The notes beneath the pieces are model-generated. The model saw only the letters and a list, made by a program, of their open reading frames with translations. It was not told where the DNA came from and did no database searches. The translations under genes were made by a program, and so were the position numbers. A DNA stretch of 43,457 nucleotides from Candidatus Nanohalobium sp. (lineage in GTDB: Archaea > Nanohalarchaeota > Nanosalinia > Nanosalinales > Nanosalinaceae). The DNA lies in the NCBI GenBank assembly GCA_042217545.1, contig JBDGSM010000003.1, positions 1 to 43,457 on the forward strand, given 5' to 3'. This document shows, piece after piece, positions 1 through 13,442 of the stretch (its first letter is position 1; each line of letters starts with the position of its first letter).

Positions 1-1493
1 CTTTCCACGATCATCTTGTCGTCTCTCTCGAGTACGCCTGAGAATGCTATCATGGCTGCGTAGAGGCCTCCGAACATCCCCAGGTCTATGATGAAGAACC
101 ATTTCGGGGTCACGGTAAACAGGTAATTTGAGAGGCTCCAGGGGAGGAAGATGCTTATTCCGCCGATGATCCACACCTTGAACGTTTTGAGCTTTAGGGG
201 AGGTCTTCCCAGGAATCTGTAGCTCATCAGGAGGTTGAATGCTGCAACTATCAGGAAGCTGGCTGTTGTGGCGTAGGCAGCTCCCAGGATACCCATATCG
301 AGCGGCACGATGAAGAGGTAATTCAGTATGAGGTTTGATACTCCTAGCATTGCTGAGGTCAGAAAGTTCAGTTCTGTTCGGTCATAGGCCTGGTAGATGT
401 TGTTAACCGGGCCTGTCAGTGATGAAGCCAGGAATCCTACCGATAAGACGCTCAGCACCTTCGAGGCCTGGTAGTATTCGTTTCCGAAGAGGAGCAGTGC
501 TGTTCTCGGGAAAAGGAAGATAACGAGGAAGATTGGAACCGCGACTATAGAGACCCATTTAGTCAATGTTCTGAAGATATCTGCGTTCAGACCTTCCTTA
601 CCTTTTGATTTGAGCTTGGAGGCGCTCGACATGAAGACTGAGTAGAAGATTGATGAGAAGCTGAAGATAAGCAAGGCAAAGGGATATGCTGCATTGTAAA
701 GCCCTACGCTTGTTGTTCCGATGAAATACTGTATCATGTAGGTGTCTATCTGGTTTGATATTACTCCGAAGACTCCGCCGGCTACGAGCGGAACTGAGAA
801 GTATCCCAGCTCTTTGAAGTTGTACTCGGGTGTGCTCTCAAGGACCTCATCAGGTGTCACCTTCCTGTAGAAGTAATAGGCTATCACTCCGCCGCAGATC
901 ACTGAGAACGAGAACGAGAATGCAGCACCGAGATAGCCGAAGCCCGCGTAGATCGCTATGGCGGTCAGCACTACCTTTATCACATTGACAGATATCTGTC
1001 CGGTGTATGCTGTGGGCTTCATGTTTTCGTAGCCTTCCCCGACGTTCGTGAGAACTTTTGTAGCTCCGAGGAACGGGAGAGATACTGCCACGAATCTTAT
1101 CGGCCAAAGGGATAGAGGTTCTTTGAATATTTCGTAAGCGATAAACCCTGAGCTGAGGAATAGCAATATTCCCAGTAAAGAGCTGGATGCCAGGACCATG
1201 ATCAGTCCTGAATGTATTGTTCCCTTTATCTTGCTGTATTTCTCTTTTCCCCTGTAATCTGAAACGTATTTCTGCACCCCTTGGTGAAAGCCGAGGAACG
1301 CGAAAGTCGTAACAGTGGAATAGACGCCCATCATCAGCGTAATTACCCCGTAATCTGTAGGACCGAGGAATCTTCCTGTCATCAACCGGTATAGAAGAGC
1401 GAGGGACTTGGCGGACAGTGTGGCTACAAACATTACTCCAGCCCCCTTCACGATTGATCTCAGCGCTGAATCCTTCTCGTCCCGGTCCTGCAT
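1..1493 (-). CDS. Oligosaccharide flippase (Wzx/RfbX, MOP superfamily), 3' end runs off the window
   Basis: Not in ORF track (no stop inside window). Manual translation from ATG at 1493: MQDRDEKDSALRSIVKGAGVMFVATLSAKSLALLYRLMTGRFLGPTDYG..., multi-TM, typical Wzx N-terminus (R.LGP..YG); frame consistent down to base 3. Confidence 0.9.
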   Translation of the reverse strand, partial: MQDRDEKDSALRSIVKGAGVMFVATLSAKSLALLYRLMTGRFLGPTDYGVITLMMGVYSTVTTFAFLGFHQGVQKYVSDYRGKEKYSKIKGTIHSGLIMVLASSSLLGILLFLSSGFIAYEIFKEPLSLWPIRFVAVSLPFLGATKVLTNVGEGYENMKPTAYTGQISVNVIKVVLTAIAIYAGFGYLGAAFSFSFSVICGGVIAYYFYRKVTPDEVLESTPEYNFKELGYFSVPLVAGGVFGVISNQIDTYMIQYFIGTTSVGLYNAAYPFALLIFSFSSIFYSVFMSSASKLKSKGKEGLNADIFRTLTKWVSIVAVPIFLVIFLFPRTALLLFGNEYYQASKVLSVLSVGFLASSLTGPVNNIYQAYDRTELNFLTSAMLGVSNLILNYLFIVPLDMGILGAAYATTASFLIVAAFNLLMSYRFLGRPPLKLKTFKVWIIGGISIFLPWSLSNYLFTVTPKWFFIIDLGMFGGLYAAMIAFSGVLERDDKMIVE

Positions 1494-1550
1494 ACTAAAT
1501 AAAAGGCCTCTCTAAGCTATAAAAAAAGTGATAGAAAATCCTCAATTGTA

Positions 1551-2957
1551 ATGGCTACAGTAATTTTTGGATTGGATGGAGCGGACCCGGAACTGATCGA
1601 AAGATGGCTTGATGAGCTCCCTAACTTCAAGAAGATAAAGGAAAAGGGTTTCTTTGGAAGTTTCAAGACTACTGAGCCCCCTATCACTGTACCGGCGTGG
1701 ATGTGTATCTTCTCGGGGAACAGGCCTTCAGATTTTGATTCATATGACTTCAGGACTGTTGATTTCGAAGACTACAGAATAAACGTTTCTAACTCAACTA
1801 ATTTTAGGGGTAAAAACCTGATAGATAATTCGGAAGATGTGATCAGCTTTCGTGTTCCGGGAACTACGCCGAAATATCCGATAGATGGTTACATGGTATC
1901 AGGTTTCATAGAGGGAGAGCAGCTAAGTTTCGAGCCCGAGTCCCTAGAGGATGAGCTTGAGGACATAGATCTTGACTTACAGGAATTTGAGGGGGATAGA
2001 TCCGAGAAGAAGGAAATCTCGAGAAGCAACTTCAAGAAAAACTATCGGGTATTCGAGAGCTTGCTTGAAGAGAAGAACTTCAAGACTGCTTTCTCGGTTT
2101 TCCGACTGGTTGACACCCACATGCACAATGTCGATGAACAGAAAGATATGCTTGAAGTCTACAAGTTAGCTGACAAGTACCTTGGGAAGATGATGGATTT
2201 AGCGGAGAAGGAAGAACACGATCTTGTTGTTCTGTCGGATCACGGCTCTATGCAGACTGAAAGGAAACTTTATCTGAACAATTACCTGAGACAGAAAGGA
2301 TTTCTCGAGTACCAGGATGAAGAGAGCTCCGTTCTAAGAAGATATGAGGAGAAGATAGGATCACTTCTTGTAAATTTAGGTTTCAAGAAGGAGGTAAAAA
2401 AACTTCTATCTATCTACTCCAGCTTGACCGGCAAGGATCCTCAGCAGACACAGGGCACAATCCTTCCAAACATCAAGAAAGAAGAAACTGAGGCCTTCTG
2501 CTATATCTCCGGAGTCTCCAGGTACGGTGCTATCTGGCTGCACGATGACAGGTTCAGCAAAGGTGTGGTCGAGAACAGAGAGAAAAAGGCAGATGAAATA
2601 GAAGAGCAAATTCAGCAAGAAAAGTTCATAGATGAAGTGGCCAGGCCTGAAGACTTCTGGACAAACCCTGAAATGCCCGATATCCTTGTAAAAGCAGACA
2701 AAGGAATAGTCATAGGAGGAGAACCCTACAATGTTAATTTCCACAAAACCTCAGCCGTCGTCCATGACGGAAGAGGTCTTCTAGCTGGGATAGGGCCTTC
2801 TTTCGAAAAGGGAATATCAGTTGAGAAGAACTATAGGGATATAGCTCCGACAATCCAGGCCTTGCAGGGGGAAGTCGATATCTCAACAGGGGACGTTCTC
2901 GAGGAGATAATTGCTGACGTAGACTACGGGAAGGAGTTGAAGGGATTGGATATTTAG
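1551..2957 (+). CDS. Alkaline phosphatase superfamily / type I phosphodiesterase-like protein
   Basis: VIFGLDGA metal motif, PPITVPAW..IFSG nucleophile loop (Thr), VVLSDHG, late H-D-G-R-G; no signal peptide. Confidence 0.85.
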   Translation: MATVIFGLDGADPELIERWLDELPNFKKIKEKGFFGSFKTTEPPITVPAWMCIFSGNRPSDFDSYDFRTVDFEDYRINVSNSTNFRGKNLIDNSEDVISFRVPGTTPKYPIDGYMVSGFIEGEQLSFEPESLEDELEDIDLDLQEFEGDRSEKKEISRSNFKKNYRVFESLLEEKNFKTAFSVFRLVDTHMHNVDEQKDMLEVYKLADKYLGKMMDLAEKEEHDLVVLSDHGSMQTERKLYLNNYLRQKGFLEYQDEESSVLRRYEEKIGSLLVNLGFKKEVKKLLSIYSSLTGKDPQQTQGTILPNIKKEETEAFCYISGVSRYGAIWLHDDRFSKGVVENREKKADEIEEQIQQEKFIDEVARPEDFWTNPEMPDILVKADKGIVIGGEPYNVNFHKTSAVVHDGRGLLAGIGPSFEKGISVEKNYRDIAPTIQALQGEVDISTGDVLEEIIADVDYGKELKGLDI

Positions 2958-2987
2958 GATGCTAATTCACTATTTTTAATGTGTAAA

Positions 2988-4004
2988 ATGGAATCAAAAA
3001 AAGTAGCTGTTTTGGCTTCGAGATTCTACAGATATGGAGGAATCCCTAGAGTCGTCACAAGGCTGTTGGATAATCTTGAGGAAATTGAGGGGTTAGAGTT
3101 TGATGTTATAACTTCGAGGACAGACTTTTATTGGGCTGAAAGAGTGGATGCAGATATAAAACAAATTTCAACTTATCCTCACCCGGTTCTAAGTTTCTTC
3201 AACCCTTTAACTATCAGGAAAATGGAGGAATATGACCTTGTATGGATTCATAACACATATTTGAACAGGCTGTCTACAATATTGGACACTCCAACTATTG
3301 CTACTTTTCATCCTCCACATAGGAGATATTCAAGCATATTTGACTTTGAAAGAGGTGTTCAAGCCACTCTAGAATCTTTTCTTCAGGAAAGAGGGTTGAG
3401 ATATCTACAGTTCACAGATAGAGTGGTCGGTATTTCAGATGAGGTTAGGGAAAGGTTAACGGAGCATTATAAAGCAAATGCTGTTAGAATTTATCATGGG
3501 GCCGATCTTCCTGCGAGTGAGAAGTCAGCAACGTCTGAAGAATTTATATTCGCATTTGCTGTGGATGCAACCGTAGAATCTGTTGCTGAGGATTATCCCG
3601 TAAAGGCGCTGACTTCAACAGGTCAGATAGAGGAAATAGAGGATAAGACGGATTCAGGCCTTATTTCTGCAATCAAGAGATCTAAGTTTGTGGTTTCCGG
3701 GTCTTTTCAAGAGGGTTTCGGCCTTGAGCCTGTTGAAGCAGCTTTCTGCGGCAAGCCGGCAGTTGTTAGGGCAGTAGGAGGACACGAAGAAACTATAAAT
3801 CACGGTGAAACAGGTTATCTGGCTAATAATAGTAAGGAATTCAAAAAGTTCGTAGAAAAATTATGGGGGGATGAGGCTCTAAGGGAAAAAATGGGCGGGA
3901 AGGCCTTTGAAAGAGCTAAAGATAAATTTACTTGGAGAAGAGCTTCTTTGAAGTATCTAGAGGAATTTAATGATCTTATGGGTACAAGTTTCCAACTAAA
4001 CTAA
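2988..4004 (+). CDS. Glycosyltransferase family 4 (GT-B)
   Basis: YGGI N-terminal motif, QEGFGLEPVEAAFCGKPAV (EX7E), HGETGYL, KFTW; start ATG 2988 (or 2979); visibly AT-rich codons. Confidence 0.9.
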   Translation: MESKKVAVLASRFYRYGGIPRVVTRLLDNLEEIEGLEFDVITSRTDFYWAERVDADIKQISTYPHPVLSFFNPLTIRKMEEYDLVWIHNTYLNRLSTILDTPTIATFHPPHRRYSSIFDFERGVQATLESFLQERGLRYLQFTDRVVGISDEVRERLTEHYKANAVRIYHGADLPASEKSATSEEFIFAFAVDATVESVAEDYPVKALTSTGQIEEIEDKTDSGLISAIKRSKFVVSGSFQEGFGLEPVEAAFCGKPAVVRAVGGHEETINHGETGYLANNSKEFKKFVEKLWGDEALREKMGGKAFERAKDKFTWRRASLKYLEEFNDLMGTSFQLN

Positions 4005-4990
4005 AAGTCTATGTTATCTGTTTCGCTCTGGTACCGGCCTTCCCTCTCTATAATTTCTCCTTTACCGATCTTACTTAGGAGCATTCTTAGATCTTCTCTT
4101 AGTATGGTTTTTTTCAGGTCTGATTCTCCCTTTGTTGGCTCCCAACTACCATTCTCAAATCGCCAGGCAGTATCATAAGATACATAGCCATCGATTACAC
4201 TTCTCCCGGCTTTCGGACATTTCTCTACTAAGTTAATCCCATCATTTTTGAGCGAAGAGCCTTTCATCAAGTTAAGCGCTGTTTCTGTCAGGTCAATTAA
4301 TCTTGCGTTTTCTTCTTGAATGCCATCGTAGTTGAGGAATACTGTTGGTACTTCCACTAGCTCCCTACTCATAGGGTGGCCGTGTGCAAATCTACGCCTA
4401 AAATTTTTTCTTTCACCTAAGAGTTCGCCGTGATCTGAGGTGAATATTATCAGAGTGCTTTGCTTCAATCCTCTTTTCTCAAGCTCCTCTATATGTTCCC
4501 AAAAATGGCTTTCGACACTCTTGCTACCTTCTTCATATTTCTCATGTATGTTTTCAGAGCCTCTGACCTCTCCATCTTCCATCTGATGTGCTAGCAGATC
4601 GTTACCATGACCCATCTCCCCATAGGGTATATGTGTGTCCATGGCTCTTTCGATGTAGACGAATGGTGGTTCTATTTCGTCTAGTTCCTTCGCTTCAGGT
4701 GTGTGCTTCAGTACTGTATTTCTTACTGGGTCCAGTTCGTTGTCGTAGAAGCTGCCGTTCTCAAAGAAGTCGAATATCGTCCTGTGGTGGGCTGAGAGAG
4801 TATCGTTGAATCCTCTTACGCTGTGGTTCTCAGGGCTTTTGCCTGTGATCAGAGATGCGAAGGATACTGGGGTATGCAGTGACGGTGCTAGCGTGTTAAT
4901 CACATTTCCCTCTTCTGCTATGCTGTCTGGAACGTGGTCATATCGCAGGGAGTCTGAGACGAAGATGAAGATGTTCTCGAATTCGCTCAT
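4001..4990 (-). CDS. Sulfatase-like hydrolase/transferase (AlkP superfamily)
   Basis: NIFIFVSDSLRYD, HTPVSFASLITG, THIPY, IIFTSDHGELLGE, HGH, VPTVF; lacks the C/S-x-P-x-R formylglycine motif. Confidence 0.85.
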   Translation of the reverse strand: MSEFENIFIFVSDSLRYDHVPDSIAEEGNVINTLAPSLHTPVSFASLITGKSPENHSVRGFNDTLSAHHRTIFDFFENGSFYDNELDPVRNTVLKHTPEAKELDEIEPPFVYIERAMDTHIPYGEMGHGNDLLAHQMEDGEVRGSENIHEKYEEGSKSVESHFWEHIEELEKRGLKQSTLIIFTSDHGELLGERKNFRRRFAHGHPMSRELVEVPTVFLNYDGIQEENARLIDLTETALNLMKGSSLKNDGINLVEKCPKAGRSVIDGYVSYDTAWRFENGSWEPTKGESDLKKTILREDLRMLLSKIGKGEIIEREGRYQSETDNIDF

Positions 4991-6303
4991 ATATCTACTT
5001 CCTCTATTTCCTTGTGATATGTTATTGACTCGAGTTTTTGAAGAGTTTTTGTTTCTTTCTTTAATTTGCCGAGTAGGCTTTGAGTTATTTCTTCGTCTCC
5101 GTAGAGATGCTCTCCGTCCTCATCTATGACTGCTCTGTTTTTCCCATCTGTTATCATTTTACAGGATTTTTCTTCATCGTCAATGTTTTCTGCGATGGCG
5201 TAACCTTTGGCCTCGAAGGGTTCTCTATCCAGCAACGACTCTATCATTTTTTGTATCTCTCTCAGGGTTGTGATATCTTCTGGCTCGAACAATCCGTCTA
5301 GATTGGTTTCCTCGCTGTAAATGATGAAAGGGACTTTCAGCATCTCATCGGAGCATGAAGGTGTATCGTGTCCTTGTGCAGGCTCCTCGTGTTCCAGGGA
5401 GTTGTCGAAGAAGAGCTCTCCGTGGTCAGATGTAATTATGAATACGGTTTCGGGGTTTTCCCCCCTGTATTCGGTGATGAAGTCCTTTAACTGCTTGTCG
5501 ATATATCTTATACAGTCGTCGTATAGATTGATTCTTTTCTGCAAATTTTCGCCTTTCGCCTTCTCCCTAGCGTTCACTACACCGTCTTTAGGCCGGTAGT
5601 AAGATGAAAATTTTCTACTGAATCCTATAGGGGGAGAATATGCAGCGTGGACCTCCATGAAGTTGCAGAAGGCGAATAAAGGTTTTTCTACCTGCTTTCC
5701 TTTTCTTTTGATTCTTCTGATGCTTTTGGTAGATCCGTAGTCGGATATGCCCCACCTTTTGCCGAATTTTCTCTCGAACTTGAAACCAGCTAACTTCAGG
5801 ACTGTTCCCGGGCCCTTCTTCGCTGCTTTCTTCATGGCTGAGAGGTACTTTTCTTTCCTTGAGTCCCAGTCGCCTCTATGTATTTCCTTTAGCATTTCGT
5901 TTGAGTCTCTGTTGCCCATGTCCGATGCCCAGAGCTGGAAGTCGAAGTCGTCGAAGGCCTCATCGTATCCGTAGAGGTCGTTCACCCACATGTTGTTGCT
6001 GTTTCCGTAGGTATGGTATCCTTTTTCCTTGAGGGAGTTCACTAAGAGATTTTCCCTTTCCAGCTCAGGGTTCTCGTTGCTGATTATCTTGTGGTCGGAA
6101 ACGAGATCTCCTGTGAATATCGATGCATGGCTCGGGACACTCCAGAAGGAGTTTGCGTAACATTTCTCGAATTTTACGCCTTTCTCAGCCAAGCTGTCTA
6201 TGAAAGGGGAAGTCTCCCTCTCATATCCGTAACAGCCTAGGTGATCAGGCCTCAGGGAATCTATGACCAAAAGCATTATGTCTGGTTTGTCCACTGAAGC
6301 CAT
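4987..6303 (-). CDS. Sulfatase-like hydrolase/transferase (AlkP superfamily)
   Basis: Likely start ATG 6303 (MASVDKPDIMLLVIDSLRPDHLGCYGY), WSVPSHASIFTG, NFMEVHAAY, IITSDHGE, KVPFII; S-x-P-x-H instead of C/S-x-P-x-R. Confidence 0.88.
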   Translation of the reverse strand: MASVDKPDIMLLVIDSLRPDHLGCYGYERETSPFIDSLAEKGVKFEKCYANSFWSVPSHASIFTGDLVSDHKIISNENPELERENLLVNSLKEKGYHTYGNSNNMWVNDLYGYDEAFDDFDFQLWASDMGNRDSNEMLKEIHRGDWDSRKEKYLSAMKKAAKKGPGTVLKLAGFKFERKFGKRWGISDYGSTKSIRRIKRKGKQVEKPLFAFCNFMEVHAAYSPPIGFSRKFSSYYRPKDGVVNAREKAKGENLQKRINLYDDCIRYIDKQLKDFITEYRGENPETVFIITSDHGELFFDNSLEHEEPAQGHDTPSCSDEMLKVPFIIYSEETNLDGLFEPEDITTLREIQKMIESLLDREPFEAKGYAIAENIDDEEKSCKMITDGKNRAVIDEDGEHLYGDEEITQSLLGKLKKETKTLQKLESITYHKEIEEVDI

Positions 6304-6355
6304 ACTCAGGGAAGAATTTTGGAGTCTTAAATAAGATACGAAACAAATATCTGGC

Positions 6356-7423
6356 ATGACCAAGGTTCTTGTAGTAGGCTGGGATGGAGCAAGTCATAAA
6401 CATTTGCAGGAGATACAGCCTGAGTTCTATTCCTCGCTGAAGCATAAGGGAAAGCTTTTGCCGGAAGATGTCTACAGAGGTATTCCGATCGATTCGGGTA
6501 CTGCCTGGACTACTATCACAACTGGTGTCGAGGTTGAGGATCACGGTTTTCTCAGCATCAACAACGTCGTGGAGTCAAGGAAGCTTCTAGGCCTTACCAA
6601 GAAGTTGACGAAGAACATCCCGCACAAGAAGCTGAGGACTTATGCCTACTACGGGCCTAACAAGCTGTTCAACCTGAAGGACAGGACTCCGAGGAGTACT
6701 GATGTCGAGTATAAACGTGTCTGGGATTATATCGATGGTAAGACTCTGAGCCTGGGAGTTCCCTTGACCTATCCTGCGTGGAAACAAGAGGGTGTGATGT
6801 TCTCCGGTATCCCCGCACCTTTAGAGGGTTCGAGGCCTGCGACCCATCCCGAAAAATACGGGGAGTACAGGAAGAGGTACAACGCGTACTACTACCTGGA
6901 CGAGAAGAAGACGCCTCTGGAGGAGGAGTCGCAGCCGAACCTGGAGGAGTACAAGGACAAGATCTACGAGTACAATGAGGAGGCCTTCGACGTTATCAGG
7001 GAATTAGATGAAGAGGAGGGTTTCGAGTTCGTCTTTGCGGTCTTCCCGATAATAGACGACCTTCTCCATGCCCTGGACCCGGAAGAGGACTGGGATGAGA
7101 TAGAGAAGGCCTATAACTGGATAGATGAGAGGACGAAAGAACTTGTCAATGATCTGGATCCTGAACACGTCCTGGTGATCAGCGACCACGGAATGATGCC
7201 TGCGGAGGAATCGCTGAACCCGAACCAGTACCCGGGACTGAAGATGGATCACGACCCTATGAACGGTATATGGGCCTCGGACACCGACCTGGGCCTTGAG
7301 GAGCAGAAGGACGTGACTCCTGCGATCCTGGAACTGTTCGGAAAGAAAGATTTCGAGCCGGAGAAGATGGAGATGGAAATAGATACATCGGAGGATGAAG
7401 GCCTCGAAGACATCTCGGTCTAA
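6356..7423 (+). CDS. Alkaline phosphatase superfamily / phosphodiesterase-like protein
   Basis: VLVVGWDGA, DSGTAWTTITTG, DDLLH, VISDHG, DHDPMNG, DVTPAIL. Confidence 0.85.
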   Translation: MTKVLVVGWDGASHKHLQEIQPEFYSSLKHKGKLLPEDVYRGIPIDSGTAWTTITTGVEVEDHGFLSINNVVESRKLLGLTKKLTKNIPHKKLRTYAYYGPNKLFNLKDRTPRSTDVEYKRVWDYIDGKTLSLGVPLTYPAWKQEGVMFSGIPAPLEGSRPATHPEKYGEYRKRYNAYYYLDEKKTPLEEESQPNLEEYKDKIYEYNEEAFDVIRELDEEEGFEFVFAVFPIIDDLLHALDPEEDWDEIEKAYNWIDERTKELVNDLDPEHVLVISDHGMMPAEESLNPNQYPGLKMDHDPMNGIWASDTDLGLEEQKDVTPAILELFGKKDFEPEKMEMEIDTSEDEGLEDISV

Positions 7424-7470
7424 GTTTTCTTTAAATCCCTTTATCTACAATCCTAGACTGTGATAGATCA

Positions 7471-7695
7471 ATGACGGATAATACTGTAGAGCTTTCGGAG
7501 GAGACATACGGCCTTCTGGCAAAGAGAGCAGAAGACAAAGGTTTCGATACAACAGATGAGTACATCAACTACGTTCTTGACCAGGTAGCTGAGAAAGCGA
7601 AGAAAAAGATGGAGGATGAAGAAGGCGAAGAGTTCAGCGAAGAAGATGAGGAAAAGGTCAAGAAAAGGTTGAAAGGCCTCGGATACCTCGACTAA
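7471..7695 (+). CDS. Small CopG/RHH-like protein with acidic linker and C-terminal RLKGLGYLD tail
   Basis: beta-alpha-alpha pattern (TVELSEETYGLL...DEYINYVL), acidic linker, tail KVKKRLKGLGYLD. Confidence 0.75.
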   Translation: MTDNTVELSEETYGLLAKRAEDKGFDTTDEYINYVLDQVAEKAKKKMEDEEGEEFSEEDEEKVKKRLKGLGYLD

Positions 7696-7740
7696 CTTCC
7701 TATCTTTCTTTTTCTATACCGGTCCATTTATTAATCAAGG

Positions 7741-7755
7741 TGCATAAGTTATGCA
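7741..7755. promoter_or_regulatory. Inverted repeat TGCATAA-G-TTATGCA, putative RHH operator
   Basis: Perfect 7-bp arms between a TATA-like TTTATTAA (7727-7734) and the ATG at 7758. Confidence 0.55.
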
Positions 7756-7757
7756 TC

Positions 7758-7955
7758 ATGCCCAGGAAGACTATCTCCCTGCCGGAGGATCTCGCGGACT
7801 TCGTGGATGAGAACCATATCAATCTCTCCAGATTCGTCCAGGACAAGCTTAGAGAGCTCGCTGACTCTGAAAACGGAGATGAGGATGAGATAACGGAGGA
7901 GCAGGCGAAAGAGATCTACCAGAAGCTGGAGAAACTGGGCTACTTAGACAGGTAG
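7758..7955 (+). CDS. Small RHH (CcdA/CopG-like) protein with C-terminal KLEKLGYLDR tail
   Basis: MPRKTISLPEDL...INLSRFVQDKL is an RHH signature; ATG 7758 preferred over GTG 7740. Confidence 0.75.
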   Translation: MPRKTISLPEDLADFVDENHINLSRFVQDKLRELADSENGDEDEITEEQAKEIYQKLEKLGYLDR

Positions 7956-7962
7956 AGTTACA

Positions 7963-8172
7963 ATGGAGAAACACAGAAGGACTTTGCTTAAAGCAGCTTC
8001 TTACAGGGTTTTCGCAACTCTAACAGTCTTCGCAGTTTCATTCGCATATACAGGAAGCTTTGCTTCGGCAGCGAGTATAGGCCTTACAGCTGCTGTCGCT
8101 AAAACAATGCTGTATTATTTGTGGGAGAGGCTCTGGAACAACATCTCCTGGGGCCTTGAGGTAGAAAACTAA
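7963..8172 (+). CDS. DUF2061 family small membrane protein
   Basis: RTLLKAASYRVFAT...KTMLYYLWERLWNNISWG matches the DUF2061 pattern; the family is often found beside sulfate-activation genes. Confidence 0.85.
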   Translation: MEKHRRTLLKAASYRVFATLTVFAVSFAYTGSFASAASIGLTAAVAKTMLYYLWERLWNNISWGLEVEN

Positions 8173-8194
8173 TGCTAGGTGACAAATTAATGTA

Positions 8195-8294
8195 CGAAAA
8201 TCAGAGATTTTCTGGACATACAGAAAATTACGGTGAAATTTTGAACGAAGATTTGAAGAAATCTTCTTGCAGAAAACACGCGAGGCGAGTTTTC
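8195..8294. repeat. Array of four short hairpin repeats in alternating orientation (CGAA..TTCTG / CAGAA..TTCG family)
   Basis: 8195 CGAAAATC-aga-GATTTTCTG; 8221 CAGAAAATT-n7-AATTTTG; 8246 CGAAGATTT-gaag-AAATCTTC; 8270 CAGAAAAC-n11-GTTTTC. Confidence 0.8.
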
Positions 8295-8296
8295 AA

Positions 8297-9082
8297 ATGA
8301 AAGTTATCGGTATAGACGCGGCTACTTGGGACATGATAAAACCTCATAGAGACGAACTTCCAAACTTTGACAGGCTGATGAACGAATGCGATTACAAGAC
8401 TGTGACTGTCGAGGAGACGCCAAAGTCAGCTCCTCTGTGGACTTCGATCTTTACAGGCCTTCGTCAGAGCCAGCACGGCCACAAAGATTTTGTGGTTGAC
8501 GACGATTTACAGAAAAGGGAGGATATAGATGGGGACTTTGTCTGGGAGGTCATGGAGGACATAGATTCCAGGATACTGCAGATTCCTTCGATTATCCCGC
8601 CGATCAACTACAACACAAGTTATGAGCCGGAGGGCTTCGGAGTCTCCAGCGATCTGGAAGAACTGGAGGCCGACAGGAAGAAGCTGATCGAGAAGTCGAA
8701 GGAAGTTCTTGAAGACGATCCCGAGTTCTTCGCTGTCGTCTTCATGCAGCTTGATCGCGTCAGCCATTTCTACTGGGACGATAAGGATCTGATCCTGGAA
8801 TGGTACAGGAAGATGGATGAAGTCCTGGGAGAACTGCTGGAGTACTACGACTTTGACGGCGATGAACCGCTTGTAGTACTTTCAGATCACGGTTTCGCGG
8901 AGTTCGGTGAGGGAAGGATCCAGACGCTGCCAGAGGAGACTCCTCACGGCACTCTTGAGGGCGACCACCACGAGGACGCTGTCCTGATCACGAAAAACGT
9001 TAATTTCGAGATTGAGCAGCCTGAGGACGTCGCGAAATCTATCCTGAATCATTATGGCTACGACGTGGAGGAGTTGTCATAA
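8297..9082 (+). CDS. Alkaline phosphatase superfamily / phosphodiesterase-like protein
   Basis: Start ATG 8297 MKVIGIDAATW, PKSAPLWTSIFTG, LDRVSH, VVLSDHGF, GDHHEDA. Confidence 0.85.
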   Translation: MKVIGIDAATWDMIKPHRDELPNFDRLMNECDYKTVTVEETPKSAPLWTSIFTGLRQSQHGHKDFVVDDDLQKREDIDGDFVWEVMEDIDSRILQIPSIIPPINYNTSYEPEGFGVSSDLEELEADRKKLIEKSKEVLEDDPEFFAVVFMQLDRVSHFYWDDKDLILEWYRKMDEVLGELLEYYDFDGDEPLVVLSDHGFAEFGEGRIQTLPEETPHGTLEGDHHEDAVLITKNVNFEIEQPEDVAKSILNHYGYDVEELS

Positions 9083-9084
9083 TG

Positions 9085-9105
9085 CAGAAAATCTACAGGT
9101 TTTCG
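9085..9105. repeat. Hairpin repeat unit (same family)
   Basis: CAGAAAATC-taca-GGTTTTCG directly after the TAATG at the end of the AlkP gene. Confidence 0.65.
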
Positions 9106-9141
9106 AATTACGGCTATGATCATCCAGAGCACAAGAAAAGG

Positions 9142-9167
9142 ACTTAAGTACTTAGGTGAGTAAGTTA
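9142..9167 (+). promoter_or_regulatory. Promoter/operator of the vapBC-like pair (ACTTA/TAAGT half-sites)
   Basis: ACTTAAGTACTTAGGTGAGTAAGTTA; repeated with one mismatch at 10907-10932 upstream of the paralogous antitoxin. Confidence 0.65.
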
Positions 9168-9172
9168 CTAGT

Positions 9173-9445
9173 ATGGGAGATATCAAGGTTTCGGTTCCGG
9201 ATGAGAAAGAAGAAAAATTCAGGAAAGCTGCTATGAAGGTTTTCGGACACAAGAGAGGCTCTATCAGCAAGGCTGCCACCAAAGCTTTGGATGAGTGGGC
9301 GGAAAGAATGTCTTTTGAGAAGGATTTGAAGATGCCTGAGGATCCTGTAGAATTCCTTGAAGGCAACATGGCTGGAGTTGAGGAGAGTGGTGTTGAACTT
9401 CAGGAACAAGCTAATGAGGTAAGATCAGATGAAGTGTCTAATTGA
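9173..9445 (+). CDS. RHH-type antitoxin (VapB-like)
   Basis: IKVSVPDEKEEKFR...GHKRGSISKAATKAL RHH pattern; overlaps the downstream PIN gene. Confidence 0.8.
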   Translation: MGDIKVSVPDEKEEKFRKAAMKVFGHKRGSISKAATKALDEWAERMSFEKDLKMPEDPVEFLEGNMAGVEESGVELQEQANEVRSDEVSN

Positions 9446-9839
9446 TGCGAACATCTTCCTGGAAGCTCAGCTTGAACAGGGAAAAAGTGAAGTCTGCAGA
9501 GAGTTCCTTGCTGAGGTCAGAGATGGTGACATTGAAGGAGTTTTGACTATGTTTCACGCCGATACTATAGCGGTGATGATGGAGAATAGGGGTTTCCAGG
9601 ACAAGATTTCTGGGTTCATGCTCAGTCTCTACATGTATGAAGGGCTGGACGTATTTACTCTAGAGTTATCAGGGAAGGCTAAAGCTATGATGTCTGATAC
9701 TGGACTAAGTTTCGATGACAGTATAGCCGTTCAGACAATGAAGGAGCTTGAAATAGAAAAAATTGTTTCATACGATGATGACTTTGATGGATTGAAGGAA
9801 AGAACTACTCCTGAAGAAGTCCTAAAAAATACTACGTGA
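9429..9839 (+). CDS. vapC: PIN-domain toxin (VapC family)
   Basis: MKCLIDANIFLE, LSFDDSI, IVSYDDDFD: PIN acidic residues. Confidence 0.9.
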   Translation: MKCLIDANIFLEAQLEQGKSEVCREFLAEVRDGDIEGVLTMFHADTIAVMMENRGFQDKISGFMLSLYMYEGLDVFTLELSGKAKAMMSDTGLSFDDSIAVQTMKELEIEKIVSYDDDFDGLKERTTPEEVLKNTT

Positions 9840-9847
9840 TTATATCT

Positions 9848-10765
9848 ATGCCAGAAGCACCAGTTACACGTGAAGAGATCGAGAACGCGCCTATAAAGGC
9901 AAAAATCAGGGCAGGAGAGGAAGTTGTCAAGCGAGCGCTTGAGGAGTACGACACCGATAACGTCGTCATCGGTTTCACCGGTGGCAAGGACTCCACTCTT
10001 ACGGCCTGGCTCGTGAAGAGGGTCTGCGAGGAGCACGGCTTCGACAAGCCGCGCTTCATGTTCGTGGACCACGGCCAGCACTTTGACGAGCTGGAGGACT
10101 ACGTGGAAAGACTCGCAAGCGACTGGGGATTCGAAGTCCTGGTAGCCAGAAACGATGACCTGATCGAGAAAGCAGATCAGCCCGGAGACATGGTTCCTGT
10201 AGCTGAACTTAACGAGACCAACCAGGAGGAGGCAGCAAGGATCGACGAAGAACTTGAAGAAGTACCATGGCTTATGGATACTGAAGCAGGAAACCACCTC
10301 CTCAAGACCGTGCCGATGAACGAACTCCTGAAAAAAGAAGGTATCGAAGCAGTCATCAACGGAGTTCGCTGGGACGAACACGAATCCAGGGGGGACGAGG
10401 ACTTCTACAGTCCAAGGGACAACCCAGACCACATCAGAGTACACCCGATCCTACAGCTAACAGAAAGAGATGTCTGGGACGTATCCTGGTTCCACATGGT
10501 ACCGGACATCACAGGAATCGACATAGACGAATACCCGGAGAGTCCAGAAGACCTCCCCGAAGGCCTCGCAAAGGATGACGTACCGATCTCGCCAAAGTAC
10601 TGGGCAGGATTCAGAAGTCTGGGATCCGAAGTATCCACGGACAAGAGCGCCGAAGAACCAGCATGGCTCCAGGACGTAGAGAACACGAAGGAAAGAGCTG
10701 GAAGAGCCCAGAACAAGGACGACAAAGAGATTATGGACAAGTTGAGAAAGCTAGGATATATGTGA
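9848..10765 (+). CDS. cysD: Sulfate adenylyltransferase subunit 2 (CysD)-like, PAPS-reductase fold
   Basis: FTGGKDS PP-loop, GVRWDEHESR, RVHPIL, FRSLG, ERAGRAQ...MDKLRKLGYM CysD-type tail; lacks the ECGLH motif and Fe-S cysteines of CysH. Start ATG 9848. Confidence 0.75.
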   Translation: MPEAPVTREEIENAPIKAKIRAGEEVVKRALEEYDTDNVVIGFTGGKDSTLTAWLVKRVCEEHGFDKPRFMFVDHGQHFDELEDYVERLASDWGFEVLVARNDDLIEKADQPGDMVPVAELNETNQEEAARIDEELEEVPWLMDTEAGNHLLKTVPMNELLKKEGIEAVINGVRWDEHESRGDEDFYSPRDNPDHIRVHPILQLTERDVWDVSWFHMVPDITGIDIDEYPESPEDLPEGLAKDDVPISPKYWAGFRSLGSEVSTDKSAEEPAWLQDVENTKERAGRAQNKDDKEIMDKLRKLGYM

Positions 10766-10775
10766 GCTAGTATTA

Positions 10776-10808
10776 AGGCCTGAAAAGGCCTAATCTTTCT
10801 TTATTTTT
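10776..10808 (+). terminator. Putative terminator: AGGCCT-GAAA-AGGCCT hairpin plus T-rich tract
   Basis: Two self-complementary hexamers closing a GAAA loop 10 nt after the cysD stop, followed by AATCTTTCTTTATTTTT. Confidence 0.45.
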
Positions 10809-11475: not shown

Positions 11476-12504
11476 ATGAAACGTTACTTGATCGGTTTGC
11501 TGGCTTTAGTGGTAGTTGCTTCTGGATGTGCGGGTTCTGGTCCGGCCAACAGTGGCTCGGGTGGAGCTGCTTTTTCTTCCATGAGTCCGCAGCAGAAGTA
11601 CAGCCATCTGATCTCTAGTAACCAGGATGCTACTTACCATGTCAGTTACAACATGACTTTTGACATGAATGCTGGGGATAGCAGAATGAGTGGCTTGCTG
11701 GGCATGATCAAGGCAATCTTTGAGAACGCTGATATTGATCTTTACAGCTACAAAGGAGATGTGAAGAGTGTTGTTTCGGTTTCTGCGCTTGGTTCGCAGA
11801 GTGTGACGGCGACATATCCTATCAAGGATTCGAACTACTCGGTTCAATGTTCGGAATCTGCAGGTTCGTCGGATCTTTCGTGCTCCTTCTCACAGTCATC
11901 AGGACTGGGTTCAGGGAACAGCGCGATGAGTACAACACCTTCCCAGGACTTCAGCGACGACCTGGATAAGATCAACCTCAGCTACGAAGGAAAGAAGACG
12001 GTAGCTGGACGTAAATGCGCCAGCTTCTCGGTAAGTATGCCTCCATCTCTCATGAACAGCAGCACTGTCCAGGGAGATGTCACAGGCCATCTATGTGTGG
12101 ATATGGAGAAAGGATTCATGTCCAGGATGGCTATGAACATGTCAATGGAGTCGTCAACAGGATTCGGAAACAACACAACTCCTGCAAACGTGTTCATAGA
12201 GTTCAAGGCCAAAGATTACAGCGAAGACGTCACAGCGTCCGATCTTGAACTGCCTAAGAACATGATCGTAGACCTCAAATGTGATGGAGGCCTTACAGGC
12301 CGTGTCTACTCCAGAGACTTCAGCGGACAGGCAGACCTTGATGTAAACGGAGAGCAGATGCAGAAACAGATCAGTTCCGGACAGATCCAGACATACAACC
12401 TGACACAGTACAGGACAAGCGGAGCCAACAGCCTCAACATCACAGCAGGAGGCGAAACCTACTCTGACAGCTGCTACCACTACGACTTCGGAGGCCTTTC
12501 CTGA
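11476..12504 (+). CDS. Lipoprotein, paralog 1 (DUF4412/LolA-like core)
   Basis: Lipobox VVASGC; TYHVSY, GKKTVAGRKC..F, LCVDMEKG; N-x-S/T sequons. Confidence 0.8.
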   Translation: MKRYLIGLLALVVVASGCAGSGPANSGSGGAAFSSMSPQQKYSHLISSNQDATYHVSYNMTFDMNAGDSRMSGLLGMIKAIFENADIDLYSYKGDVKSVVSVSALGSQSVTATYPIKDSNYSVQCSESAGSSDLSCSFSQSSGLGSGNSAMSTTPSQDFSDDLDKINLSYEGKKTVAGRKCASFSVSMPPSLMNSSTVQGDVTGHLCVDMEKGFMSRMAMNMSMESSTGFGNNTTPANVFIEFKAKDYSEDVTASDLELPKNMIVDLKCDGGLTGRVYSRDFSGQADLDVNGEQMQKQISSGQIQTYNLTQYRTSGANSLNITAGGETYSDSCYHYDFGGLS

Positions 12505-12542: not shown

Positions 12543-13442
12543 TTATTCAAGAAGCTCTCTGGCGCATTCCCTTACTGAATCCGCAGAGTTCCTGCCCGGC
12601 TTCCATCCGGTCGACTTCAGCTTCTCTATCTCAAGCCTCATCTCCGGAACATCGCCGTCCCAGCCTTTCTCCCCGCCCGTGTAAGAGTATTCCGGGTCGA
12701 GACCCATCTCATCACTTACAATATCCGCGATGCCGTCCACATCTATAGAGTCCTCGGAACCTATGTTGAAAGCAGTCCCCGAGGCCTTCCAGGCCTTGAT
12801 TATACCCCTCACAGTGTCATCCACGTGTAGATAGCTCTTCCTCTGCTTCCCGTTGCCGAGGATCGTCAACTCCTCAGGATTATCCTTCAGTTTATGTATG
12901 AAATCGTAGATAACGCCTTTCTGATTCCTGCCGCCGACAATATTTGCCAGGCGGACGATAGTCGCATCTATACCGAAGATCTGCTGATAGACCTGGCACA
13001 TGTGTTCGCCTCCGGCCTTTGTAGCGCCGTACATCGATATAGGATCAAGCAAAGCATCTTCAGGCGTCGGAATCTCCGCGTCCTCGCCATAAACTACGGA
13101 AGAAGAGGTGAAGACTAACTCCTCCACACCTGAACTCTCACAGGCCTCCAGAACATTCTTCGTACCTCTCAGATTCTCTTCGAAATCCTTATCCTGGTCA
13201 TCAGGGAACGTGTTCACCTTGGGATTAGCGGCCAGATGAAAGACAGCATCTACATCTGAAAAAGCATCTTCAAGGCCTTCATAATTCTTTATATCATGTT
13301 CAACCAGCTCTGCATTCTCCGGAACGTTTTCCTCAAGACCTGAGGACATGTTGTCGACAACCTTGACCTCGTGATCCTCGAGCAGTTTTTCCGATAGCCT
13401 TGATCCTATGAAGCCAGCTCCTCCTGTGACCGCGACCTTCAT
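12543..13442 (-). CDS. NAD-dependent sugar epimerase/dehydratase (GalE-like)
   Basis: VTGGAGFIG, FHLAA, TSSSVVYG, YGATK, GNGKQRKSYLHV. Confidence 0.92.
   Translation of the reverse strand: MKVAVTGGAGFIGSRLSEKLLEDHEVKVVDNMSSGLEENVPENAELVEHDIKNYEGLEDAFSDVDAVFHLAANPKVNTFPDDQDKDFEENLRGTKNVLEACESSGVEELVFTSSSVVYGEDAEIPTPEDALLDPISMYGATKAGGEHMCQVYQQIFGIDATIVRLANIVGGRNQKGVIYDFIHKLKDNPEELTILGNGKQRKSYLHVDDTVRGIIKAWKASGTAFNIGSEDSIDVDGIADIVSDEMGLDPEYSYTGGEKGWDGDVPEMRLEIEKLKSTGWKPGRNSADSVRECARELLE

Follow-up and report, generated by a model that had tools for sequence, protein, structure and literature searches.

Sulfatase-like proteins that sulfate haloarchaeal N-glycans are already known. In Haloferax volcanii, Agl7 (HVO_2046) carries a sulfatase annotation and is described as required for the sulfation of DolP-hexose (PMC3892788), while in Halobacterium salinarum deletion and heterologous expression identify Agl30 (VNG1056C) and Agl31 (VNG1057C) as sulfatase-like N-glycan sulfotransferases of the AlkP superfamily (PMC11980604). 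In both papers, the genetics of these proteins indicates that they are needed to add, not remove, sulfate on dolichol-phosphate-linked or N-linked glycans. The terms 'PAPS', 'donor' and 'adenosine' occur nowhere in PMC11980604.

The locus described here lies in a window of 43,457 nucleotides (the whole stretch of DNA that was analysed) from a 1.03-Mb, 92%-complete nanohaloarchaeal genome. Compared by their published descriptions, Agl7, Agl30 and Agl31 resemble the window enzymes in belonging to the AlkP superfamily and in being encoded in N-glycosylation clusters. Unlike them, the window enzymes sit together with a CysD-like activator, to which their relatives are fused. With a probability of roughly 60%, this region encodes the modification functions of a nanohaloarchaeal N-glycan/surface-glycan island and carries a PAPS-independent sulfation system, in which the CysD-like enzyme would make APS and the AlkP-fold enzymes would move the APS sulfate onto the glycan.

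Gene content of the locus

Positions 1-10765 of the window contain genes for a flippase, a GT4 glycosyltransferase, five AlkP/sulfatase-fold proteins, a DUF2061 protein and the CysD-like protein; AglB follows 16 kb downstream of the CysD-like/AlkP-fold gene set.

3..1493, minus strand: Wzx/MOP-type polysaccharide flippase (PF01943, E 2e-34; PF13440; MatE), eight TM-like segments, overrunning the window start
1551..2957, plus strand: AlkP_A, NPP-type with cap insertion (PF01663, E 2.9e-27; aligned catalytic columns)
2979..4004, plus strand: GT4 glycosyltransferase (PF00534, 5.8e-15; PF13439, 1.4e-12)
4001..4990, minus strand: Sulf_B, short sulfatase-fold protein (PF00884, 7.3e-11, match confined to the C-terminal part)
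4987..6363, minus strand: Sulf_C, sulfatase-fold protein (PF00884, 5e-37); true start probably Met21 at 6303
6356..7423, plus strand: AlkP_D, NPP-type AlkP-fold enzyme (PF01663, 3.5e-14; alignment)
7471..7695, plus strand: sm74, small acidic protein ending in RLKGLGYLD, a CysD-type tail
7740..7955, plus strand: sm71, small acidic protein, probably ribbon-helix-helix, ending in KLEKLGYLDR; likely start 7758
7963..8172, plus strand: DUF2061 small membrane protein (PF09834, 1.3e-18)
8267..9082, plus strand: AlkP_E, minimal NPP-like AlkP-fold enzyme of ~260 residues (PF01663, 1.5e-23); likely start 8297
9173..9445, plus strand: VapB-like antitoxin, overlapping the PIN gene; no family match
9429..9839, plus strand: PIN-domain (VapC-like) toxin (PF01850, 5.8e-5)
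9836..10765, plus strand: CysD-like PP-loop adenylyltransferase (PF01507, 2.3e-22), ending in KLRKLGYM; likely start 9848
12543..13442, minus strand: NAD-dependent sugar epimerase/dehydratase (PF01370, 2.6e-52), part of the glycan island context
26647..29493, plus strand: AglB/STT3 oligosaccharyltransferase (PF02516, 2.4e-13)
29469-30632, following AglB: AglH-like gene of GT family 4 (PF00953, 2.3e-25)

Within the window the glycan context comprises the flippase, GT4, epimerases, NTP transferases, AglB and the AglH-like glycosyltransferase. The first-pass annotation had placed the flippase, GT4, the five AlkP/sulfatase-fold genes, DUF2061 and the CysD-like gene correctly; sm74, sm71, the VapB/PIN pair (9173-9839), AglB and a sixth, broken sulfatase-like gene, located on contig C42, had escaped it. 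For sm74 no Pfam family was found at E<0.01. The sm71 protein gives a weak CcdA match (0.021) and, as a lead only, relates in the Atlas to its own cluster (0.93) and to a CopG cluster (0.82); among 23 nanohaloarchaeal loci, at least 13 have its gene 5′ of the CysD-like gene. DUF2061 occupies the same position in only 7 of these 23 related loci, and none of its relatives is fused or informative. The VapB/PIN pair between AlkP_E and the CysD-like gene is an inserted element outside the module; the VapB-like antitoxin is missing from the same place in most of the relatives' loci.

Coupling of CysD-like and AlkP/sulfatase domains

Fusions, gene order and co-occurrence show the CysD-like enzyme and the AlkP-fold enzymes to be a coupled unit, which is the new point of this analysis. 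All 41 CysD-like homologues of 542-2000 residues (E<=1e-20) combine PF01507 with PF01663 and/or PF00884, and in the three fusion sequences read whole the AlkP part is N-terminal. Fifteen further long representatives include 14 with the same architecture and one intein form. P0276 consists of AlkP, EF-Tu-type G and CysD-like domains and P0264 of a G domain and a CysD-like domain; both G domains score as EF-1alpha/CysN, which ties the CysD-like family to the CysD-CysN logic. The nucleophile position, sought in the first 140 residues of the 41 fusions, is Thr in 35, Ser in 4 and Cys in none (2 not located), and the sulfatase motif C/S-x-P-x-R is absent from the 39 in which the position was located.

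A gene-neighbourhood survey places an AlkP_E orthologue directly upstream of the CysD-like gene, or fused to it, in 18 of the 23 nanohaloarchaeal loci, and contig ends cut four of the five exceptions. The orthologues that adjoin CysD-like genes in relatives are 71-90% identical, and AlkP_E is proposed as the cognate partner of the CysD-like protein. Across the phylum, 40 of 70 genomes carry the CysD-like gene, 31 carry AlkP_E and 29 carry both. Of those 40 nanohaloarchaeal genomes, 11 lack an AlkP_E orthologue (E<=1e-30). Four of the AlkP_E-less genomes are complete, and all four contain PF00884/PF01663 matches 3-11 kb from the CysD-like gene, which in one of them (G053) fall below Pfam's cut-off. 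Orthologues of Sulf_B, with 44-54% identity, occur in three loci (L018, L021 and L029). The predicted complex of the CysD-like protein and AlkP_E scores 0.45 (best of three controls 0.00), with at least 57% contact agreement between runs and a partner pLDDT of at least 89. Of 157 solved complexes, 116 reach the mark for such predictions, as do 2 of 215 mismatched pairs; at 0.60 or lower, it is reached by only 18 of the 157 and by both mismatched pairs. The prediction lends the pairing weak backing.

In an even sample of 101 Halobacteria, every genome encodes the CysD-like protein and an S-S-A-C-W-type AlkP, yet the two genes are adjacent, as read from coordinates, in only 17; 4 genomes have an APS kinase, 2 have Sat and none has CysN. 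Such universality and strong conservation suggest a housekeeping role, not necessarily glycan sulfation. The CysD-like/AlkP_E pair would then activate sulfate for other acceptors (sulfated lipids, sulfur assimilation), and the other four AlkP-fold proteins would not be sulfotransferases but would transfer or hydrolyse phosphoryl or phosphodiester groups on the glycan or on nucleotide sugars. This agrees with the matches of AlkP_A and AlkP_D to PF01663 (phosphodiesterase/NPP) rather than the sulfatase family, and with a complement of extra AlkP paralogues that differs between loci. We nevertheless consider it unlikely, as Sulf_C, with its T/S-x-P-S-H motif, is significantly similar to the CysD-like-fused sulfatase domains (BLASTP matches to 37 of the 41 fusions, best 8e-24), AlkP- and sulfatase-type proteins with a CysD-type LGY tail are present in the same loci, and the reduced-genome nanohaloarchaea keep the CysD-like gene inside glycan islands. 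Nanohaloarchaea are not known to make their own lipids, which also counts against it.

The five AlkP/sulfatase-fold proteins

The catalytic loops read ITVPAW, HTPVSF, WSVPSH, DSGTAW and KSAPLW, exactly as quoted before, and the C/S-x-P-x-R motif is found in none of the five proteins, Ser or Thr replacing formylglycine. The nucleophile position is Thr in AlkP_A (T-V-P-A-W) and Sulf_B (T-P-V-S-F), and Ser in AlkP_D (S-G-T-A-W) and Sulf_C (S-V-P-S-H-A-S-I-F-T-G). The Sulf_C motif is of a type common to sulfatase domains fused to CysD-like proteins and matches the fusion consensus TLPSHASLFTG. The first metal-binding Asp lies ~7-35 residues from the start, and the earlier observation that signal peptides are missing holds for all five, which have no TM-like or signal-like stretch (maximum Kyte-Doolittle 19-mer 0.54-1.47); all five are predicted to be cytosolic. 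They lack the multi-TM anchor of LtaS and EptA, Thr-type AlkP enzymes that are able to act as transferases. Sulf_B and Sulf_C share the sulfatase Pfam domain and conserved metal ligands with the formylglycine-dependent sulfatases (family S1). In contrast to these, the window proteins have Ser/Thr instead of Cys/Ser-x-P-x-R, no FGE and no signal peptide, and the proposed reaction direction is the reverse.

In the AlkP_E alignment D7, D153, H157, D197 and H198 are invariant and S44 is nearly invariant, which indicates an intact Ser44 nucleophile and a fully retained AlkP bimetal site. The structure model (pLDDT 87.7) has an NPP-like AlkP fold, with Xac NPP and ENPP1/3 as the top folds, which share its D / S-T / D-x-x-x-H / D-H / H metal-site pattern. 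AlkP_E differs from these NPPs in being a cap-less core, and the group that it is proposed to move is the sulfuryl group of APS. Since NPPs attack phosphorus, AlkP_E might simply hydrolyse APS.

More generally, the AlkP/sulfatase-fold proteins could be hydrolases that cleave organic esters to free sulfate or phosphate, supplying sulfate to the CysD-like protein for assimilation, or that trim or edit glycan modifications. That Pfam and NCBIfam relate them to arylsulfatases, choline sulfatase and NPPs fits such a role, and fusion of a 'sulfatase' to a sulfate activator could allow channelling along this route. We regard this as improbable, given the missing sulfatase motif in window proteins and fusions, the predicted cytosolic location, and the content of the whole 92%-complete genome, in which no FGE and no APS kinase were found and a single PAPS_reduct gene leaves no second family member for a CysH-type reductase. 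Two further points count against it: the habitat is rich in sulfate, and formylglycine-to-Ser sulfatase mutants, as studied by Recksiek and co-workers in 1998, reportedly trap the sulfo-enzyme without turnover. The absence of CysN, APS kinase, classical sulfotransferases and FGE, previously noted for the window, extends to this whole genome: no APS kinase scores over the cut-off, the best match to CysN is EF-1alpha (657 bits), and neither Sat nor Sulfotransfer_1 or Sulfotransfer_3 was found.

The CysD-like protein and a candidate route from APS to the glycan

The ATP sulfurylase CysD-CysN (Pseudomonas syringae, PDB entry 1ZUN; E. coli; rhizobial NodP/NodQ paralogues) is driven by GTP, and its CysD subunit shares the PP-loop fold and a C-terminal RxLG / ERxGR / GY-end segment with the CysD-like protein. 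CysD is the closest match both among curated families and among PDB sequences: the best NCBIfam match is PRK05253 with 78.6 bits, well short of the curated CysD thresholds (78.6 versus 195; 52.8 versus 396.6), and the family profile aligns to 1ZUN_A with an E of 3e-15 over positions 24-306, including the C-terminal segment (RSLG in this alignment). Unlike CysD, the protein lacks a segment of ~23 CysD residues in the alignment, its canonical GTPase partner CysN is missing, and it is constantly paired with an AlkP-fold enzyme, not with an APS kinase. The TGGKDST motif is invariant in the family. There is no invariant Cys, and a CysH-type reductase is ruled out for this reason. In a Foldseek search the model is closest to human FAD synthase (1.4e-10), with CysD 1ZUN_A at rank 8, and the modelled fold alone does not tell the protein apart from a FAD synthase or a (P)APS reductase. 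Adenylylation of a non-sulfate substrate such as FMN, as by eukaryotic FAD synthase, with the AlkP partner as the matching nucleotide pyrophosphatase (compare the hydrolase domain of human FAD synthase), would suit this ranking, the presence of FAD synthase 8ROM/8RON among the PDB sequence matches, the NPP-like look of AlkP_E and the universality in Halobacteria expected of a cofactor enzyme, but is highly improbable because FAD synthase covers the N-terminal PP-loop half only (1.9e-8) whereas the CysD alignment runs through to the C-terminal tail, CysD is the best curated family, relatives are fused to CysN/EF-1alpha-type G domains and mostly to sulfatase-family (PF00884) domains, and 10 of 28 high-quality nanohaloarchaeal genomes lack the CysD-like gene. 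We propose that the protein is a CysN-independent ATP sulfurylase.

The part of the original proposal that is strongly backed, by fusions, synteny, co-occurrence and the missing PAPS route, is that the Ser/Thr-type AlkP-fold enzymes would be transferases supplied by a CysD-like sulfate activator, with no APS kinase involved. In the sulfation system favoured here, the CysD-like PP-loop enzyme would adenylylate sulfate (ATP + sulfate -> APS + PPi) without CysN, and the APS would stay unphosphorylated because there is no APS kinase. The AlkP-fold enzymes would consume APS at once as the direct donor, a metal-activated Ser/Thr taking up the sulfuryl group as a sulfo-Ser/Thr intermediate and passing it to a sugar hydroxyl. 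AlkP_E would be the dedicated partner, its use of APS pulling the unfavourable activation step, whereas AlkP_A, Sulf_B, Sulf_C and AlkP_D would be paralogous transferases for other positions or sugars. These four would work inside the cytoplasm, ahead of the flippase and AglB steps; the acceptor may be the lipid-linked glycan where it faces the cytoplasm, and all five paralogues may transfer sulfate rather than phosphate. Aryl sulfotransferases (ASST) likewise transfer sulfuryl groups without PAPS, through a covalent enzyme intermediate, but have an unrelated fold, a periplasmic location, aryl sulfate donors and a His nucleophile. A review names ASST as PAPS-independent (PMC11625862).

In the available text of the papers on Agl7 and Agl30/Agl31, the sulfate donor is a point left unaddressed, and no mechanism is put forward (PMC3892788, PMC11980604). 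The nanohaloarchaeal module is probably a route to sulfated surface sugars that dispenses with the usual donor PAPS.

Coupling of the CysD-like gene to AlkP-fold enzymes

The first-pass annotation proposed that AlkP-fold enzymes, supplied with APS by a CysD-like protein, add sulfate (or phosphate) to a lipid-linked glycan without an APS kinase. The genes that it named are all present in an ORF listing and family scans of the window, together with two small acidic proteins and a VapB/PIN (VapC-like) pair that it had not named.

Features of the module and of the glycosylation island (coordinates, strand where recorded, feature)
3-1493, -, flippase (ORF listing and family scan)
1551-2957, AlkP_A, AlkP/sulfatase-fold protein (ORF listing and family scan)
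2979-4004, GT4 glycosyltransferase (ORF listing and family scan)
4001-4990, -, Sulf_B, AlkP/sulfatase-fold protein (ORF listing and family scan)
4987-6363, -, Sulf_C, AlkP/sulfatase-fold protein (ORF listing and family scan)
6356-7423, AlkP_D, AlkP/sulfatase-fold protein (ORF listing and family scan)
7471-7695, small acidic protein
7740-7955, small acidic protein
7963-8172, DUF2061 (67.6 bits against a Pfam cut-off of 23.1)
8267-9082, AlkP_E, AlkP/sulfatase-fold protein (ORF listing and family scan)
9173-9839, VapB/PIN pair, between AlkP_E and the CysD-like gene
9836-10765, PAPS_reduct/CysD-like gene (ORF listing and family scan)
26647-29493, AglB/STT3, in the glycosylation island with a PF00953 glycosyltransferase

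The remainder of the window is a glycosylation island, which besides AglB/STT3 and the PF00953 glycosyltransferase encodes epimerases, RHH-fused and GlmU-like nucleotidyltransferases and a phosphoglucomutase. The window is contig C23 of a genome of 1,032,751 bases in 82 contigs (92% complete). Close homologues carry the names Candidatus Nanosalina or Nanohaloarchaea, and Ca. Nanohalobium constans has a copy of the CysD-like gene with 88% identity. A scan for bacterial-type promoters and terminators carries little information in an archaeon; the one result of use is a hairpin and T-run directly 3' of the CysD-like gene (10776-10791). For DUF2061, a search for longer or fused relatives found none, and the titles and abstracts of the literature gave no functional lead. 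Just downstream of the module lie three paralogous predicted lipoproteins (11476-12504, 13542-14501 and 14579-15484), Ser/Thr-rich and without a Pfam family, each with an N-terminal LASGCA lipobox-like signal; these could be surface proteins that receive the glycan. The island also contains a ribbon-helix-helix domain fused to a sugar-phosphate nucleotidyltransferase (15534-16289; PF01402 and PF00483), which is kept near the CysD-like gene in other nanohaloarchaeal loci, and a stand-alone TctA-family membrane transporter (21486-22667, minus strand), with a similar gene near the CysD-like gene of one relative (L008).

The coupling between CysD-like and AlkP domains is the main result of the analysis and is well supported. 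A neighbourhood survey reveals an AlkP_E orthologue (38-90% identity) just upstream of, or fused to, the CysD-like gene in 18 of 23 nanohaloarchaeal loci, including one (L028) where the two form a single frame of 570 aa. Contig ends truncate four of the five loci without an adjoining AlkP_E; in the fifth, L014, the only such ORF is a weak sulfatase-like one, 5.5 kb upstream of the CysD-like gene. The two genes are separated by less than 100 bases in most relatives, and the VapB/PIN pair of the window is an insertion into this otherwise tight junction. The same pair occurs in Nanosalina J07AB43 (L012), where fragments of the CysD-like gene and of AlkP_E are also duplicated. The module has variable additions as well: in related loci (L020:9246-10001; L014:11314-12009) an FkbM-type methyltransferase separates AlkP_E from the CysD-like gene, or a sugar N-formyltransferase follows the latter. 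The complement of the four extra AlkP paralogues likewise differs among loci. Of 70 genomes from the phylum, 40 have the CysD-like gene (18 of the 28 of high quality) and 31 have AlkP_E (E<=1e-30); 29 have both, 2 have AlkP_E without the CysD-like gene, and 11 have the CysD-like gene without AlkP_E. The four complete genomes in the last group all have matches to PF00884 or PF01663 at 3-11 kb from the CysD-like gene, those of one genome being under cut-off.

Fusions show the coupling as well. In each of the 41 longer CysD-like homologues (542-2000 aa, E<=1e-20), PF01507 is joined to PF01663 and/or PF00884; the few sources that are named include Thermoplasmata MAGs, Desulfovirgula thermocuniculi and Ca. 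Acididesulfobacter. The CysD-like profile matches 103 proteins at E<=1e-30 in a library of representatives at 50% identity. The best 150 representatives include 19 of at least 640 aa, four of which were fusions already identified; the other 15 comprise 14 AlkP::CysD-like proteins and one with an intein. P0276 combines AlkP, an EF-Tu-type G domain and a CysD-like domain, and P0264 a G domain and a CysD-like domain; both G domains score as EF-1alpha/CysN. The protein with the intein is P0305 (674 aa), and its intein holds a LAGLIDADG domain. P0084 (404 aa) is aligned with about 77 residues duplicated internally, possibly through an assembly artefact. A predicted complex of the CysD-like protein and AlkP_E scores 0.45, the best of three controls reaching 0.00, with at least 57% of contacts in agreement between runs and partner pLDDT of at least 89. 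Of 157 solved complexes 116 reach the mark used, as do 2 of 215 mismatches; at scores of 0.60 or below only 18 of those solved complexes and both mismatches reach it. The prediction lends weak support to the pairing.

Class assignment of the two partners

In the CysD-like protein the PP-loop motif T48-G-G-K-D-S-T-L-T56, of the SGGKDS type of ATP pyrophosphatases, is invariant in 13 sequences. Curated CysD families are its best match, at scores far under their cut-offs: 78.6 against 195 for PRK05253, 52.8 against 396.6 for TIGR02039 and 50.7 against 413 for PRK12563. A profile of the 13 sequences matches Pseudomonas syringae CysD (1ZUN_A) over nearly the whole length with an E value of 3e-15, to the last residues and including the C-terminal RSLG, ERxGR and terminal GY segments (RxLG, ERxGR and GY-hydrophobic); FAD synthase aligned with the profile over the PP-loop half only. 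A CysH-type (P)APS reductase is excluded, since no Cys, the catalytic C-terminal one included, is among the invariant columns of the 13 sequences. Fold comparison was rejected as a test of class: a Foldseek search with the model (pLDDT 87.5) separates CysD neither from FAD synthase nor from APS reductases, so that the assignment rests on sequence and on the fusions. CysD works with a genome-encoded CysN GTPase; in the genome of the window no CysN scores over cut-off. Some distant relatives are fused to a G domain.

The five loops read in the first pass are exact, and none of the five AlkP-fold proteins contains the C/S-x-P-x-R motif, which serves maturation and catalysis in the formylglycine (S1) sulfatases. 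When the loops are read backwards from the conserved T/S-G, Thr or Ser occupies the nucleophile position (TVPAW, TPVSF, SVPSH, SGTAW and SAPLW), and the Arg of the motif is replaced by W, F or H in all five loops. Of the 41 fusions, 35 have Thr at the nucleophile position, 4 have Ser and none has Cys; in two it was not located within the first 140 residues. The fusion consensus TLPSHASLFTG has the motif type seen in Sulf_C and in a broken sulfatase-like gene elsewhere in the genome (contig C42). PF01663 scores of 96.6 (AlkP_A), 53.6 (AlkP_D) and 84.4 bits (AlkP_E) lie above the cut-off of 23. When AlkP_E orthologues are aligned with halobacterial neighbours, AlkP_A and AlkP_D (numbering from the Met at 8297), residues D7, D153, H157, D197 and H198 are invariant and S44 is nearly so, which is the full AlkP bimetal pattern. 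For a model of AlkP_E (pLDDT 87.7, pTM 0.88) the nearest folds are Xanthomonas NPP and ENPP1/3, with E of about 3e-7. No transmembrane segment or hydrophobic N-terminus was found in any of the five proteins; a membrane-anchored transferase of the LtaS/EptA type was rejected, as none has an N-terminal multi-TM domain. Among the matches listed for COG1524, the accessible literature contains bacterial work and nothing on archaea.

The PAPS route in the genome of the window and in Halobacteria

The lack of a PAPS route, noted for the window in the first pass, extends to the genome and is well supported. In this 92%-complete genome no APS kinase or CysN scores over cut-off (the best match to CysN being EF-1alpha), and searches found no Sat, Sulfotransfer_1, Sulfotransfer_3 or second PAPS_reduct gene, nor PF03781, the family of the maturation enzyme FGE. 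At this completeness these are genes that were not found rather than genes shown to be absent. A match to APS kinase in the Haloferax volcanii control was discarded, as it looks like a marginal P-loop match: in two related genomes it reaches 24 bits across 50 positions, and the control has no match at E<=1e-10. In an even sample of 101 halobacterial genomes, APS kinase occurs in 4 and Sat in 2, and CysN was found in none.

All 101 of these genomes encode the CysD-like protein, and all encode a PF01663 AlkP of 448 aa with an S-S-A-C-W loop (52-93% identity to the Halorubrum copy), for which we know of no assigned function. As read from coordinates, the two genes are adjacent in 17 of the 101. 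In the clustering of gene neighbours, ORFs of high-GC Halobacteria, where spurious long ORFs occur, were picked by GC3. The universality of the pair suggests a role wider than glycan decoration. A second, tandem CysD-like paralogue occurs in 15 of the 101 genomes (for example G070:C1:744605-746725, and loci L050, L059, L078 and L080), with 42-46% identity to the window protein and the same C-terminal tail.

It has been known for decades that haloarchaea make sulfated N-glycans. Sulfatase-fold glycan sulfotransferases are also known: without agl7 (HVO_2046, annotated as N-acetylgalactosamine-4-sulfatase) the dolichol-phosphate glycan of Haloferax volcanii is unsulfated, whereas deletion of the adjoining HVO_2047, a hypothetical gene of 296 aa, had no effect (PMC3892788), and VNG1056C and VNG1057C of Halobacterium salinarum are the AlkP-superfamily, sulfatase-like N-glycan sulfotransferases Agl30 and Agl31, as established by deletion and by expression in Hfx. 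volcanii (PMC11980604). PAPS, adenosine and formylglycine go unmentioned in the latter paper, as do any donor and any catalytic residue, and in their accessible parts neither the 2013 nor the 2025 genetic study of such enzymes names a sulfate donor or mechanism. The available part of a 2024 review of polysaccharide sulfotransferases describes the archaeal enzymes as uncharacterised and lists aryl sulfotransferases as the only PAPS-independent enzymes (PMC11625862). Like the proteins of the window, Agl7, Agl30 and Agl31 are AlkP-superfamily, sulfatase-like proteins in an AglB-linked cluster, a likeness drawn from published description. What is added here is a candidate donor-generating partner; no published system that pairs a CysD-like protein with AlkP or sulfatase-like enzymes and APS was found in the accessible literature, and subscription journals may hold one.

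A proposed route from APS to the glycan

The best explanation, to which we assign a probability of about 0.6, is that the CysD-like protein is a source of APS from which AlkP-fold enzymes transfer sulfate onto a glycan. The original proposal is partly supported: the coupling and the lack of a PAPS route stand, and the chemistry and the acceptor are inferred. In this lineage CysN and, as a rule, APS kinase were not found, while the AlkP-fold partner is constant and sometimes fused; in the simplest reading the AlkP enzyme consumes the APS. The metal-bound Ser/Thr alkoxide would attack the sulfur of APS, AMP would leave, and the sulfo-enzyme would hand its sulfate to a sugar hydroxyl; the four extra paralogues may provide position or sugar specificity, as Agl30 and Agl31 do. 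Sulfatase mutants with formylglycine changed to Ser are reportedly stably sulfated (Recksiek and co-workers, in 1998), an observation in keeping with transfer, and not hydrolysis, by a Ser/Thr enzyme. The equilibrium of ATP sulfurylase lies far towards ATP and requires a pull by CysN-GTP hydrolysis, PPi removal or APS kinase. Three main counter-points bear on this explanation: the AlkP_E fold is NPP-like, and NPPs attack phosphorus; the CysD scores fall under the cut-offs; and the CysD-like/AlkP pair is universal in Halobacteria.

A shared C-terminal tail provides a further lead. The CysD-like protein ends in ..KEIMDKLRKLGYM, and the two small, RHH-like proteins (7471-7695 and 7740-7955) end in ..KEIYQKLEKLGYLDR and ..KVKKRLKGLGYLD. 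The pattern L-x-x-[LA]-G-Y-[LMFIC] followed by 0-3 residues occurs in 4 of 6596 genome ORFs of at least 40 aa, namely these three and the tail piece of the broken gene on C42 (C42:1475-1768), all four of them parts of this system. A 479-aa sulfatase-like protein of Nanosalina VS9-1 (L013:5775-7214) has the same tail. In 57 halobacterial loci the pattern is found in 62 of 7239 ORFs, 60 of which are CysD-like proteins or tandem paralogues; the other two are AlkP-family proteins of 505-525 aa (L031:17492-19069; L072:18243-19760). Within the CysD-like model, confidence is lowest in the tail (pLDDT 57-72). As a lead, and no more, the L-x-x-L-G-Y-[LM] tail may be a docking peptide of the system. The C42 gene (C42:1475-2805, minus strand, on a 3.7-kb contig) is a sixth sulfatase-like gene (TLPSHGSMFTG) split over three frames, with the LGYM tail on its last piece, and is either a pseudogene or an assembly error.

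A broader joint reading is tentative, and we hold it to be somewhat doubtful. AlkP-fold Ser/Thr enzymes would form a new mechanistic class of sulfotransferases in which APS, made locally by the CysN-less CysD-like enzyme, is the direct source of the sulfuryl group, via a covalent sulfo-Ser/Thr intermediate and without PAPS. This system, which is universal in Halobacteria, would supply the source so far missing for every sulfated glycan of haloarchaea, and perhaps for sulfated lipids. The tail would be a docking peptide that recruits several transferases, along with small RHH regulators, to a single hub of activation.

With a CysD-like enzyme in 101 of 101 sampled Halobacteria, fused or linked elsewhere to AlkP-fold enzymes, the question of the sulfate donor is now testable. 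If the proposed route is real, biological sulfation can proceed independently of PAPS, and the alkaline-phosphatase fold has a catalytic use that is new. The route would also provide enzymes for sugar sulfation from ATP and sulfate alone, and would explain how symbionts with reduced genomes charge their surfaces in brine.
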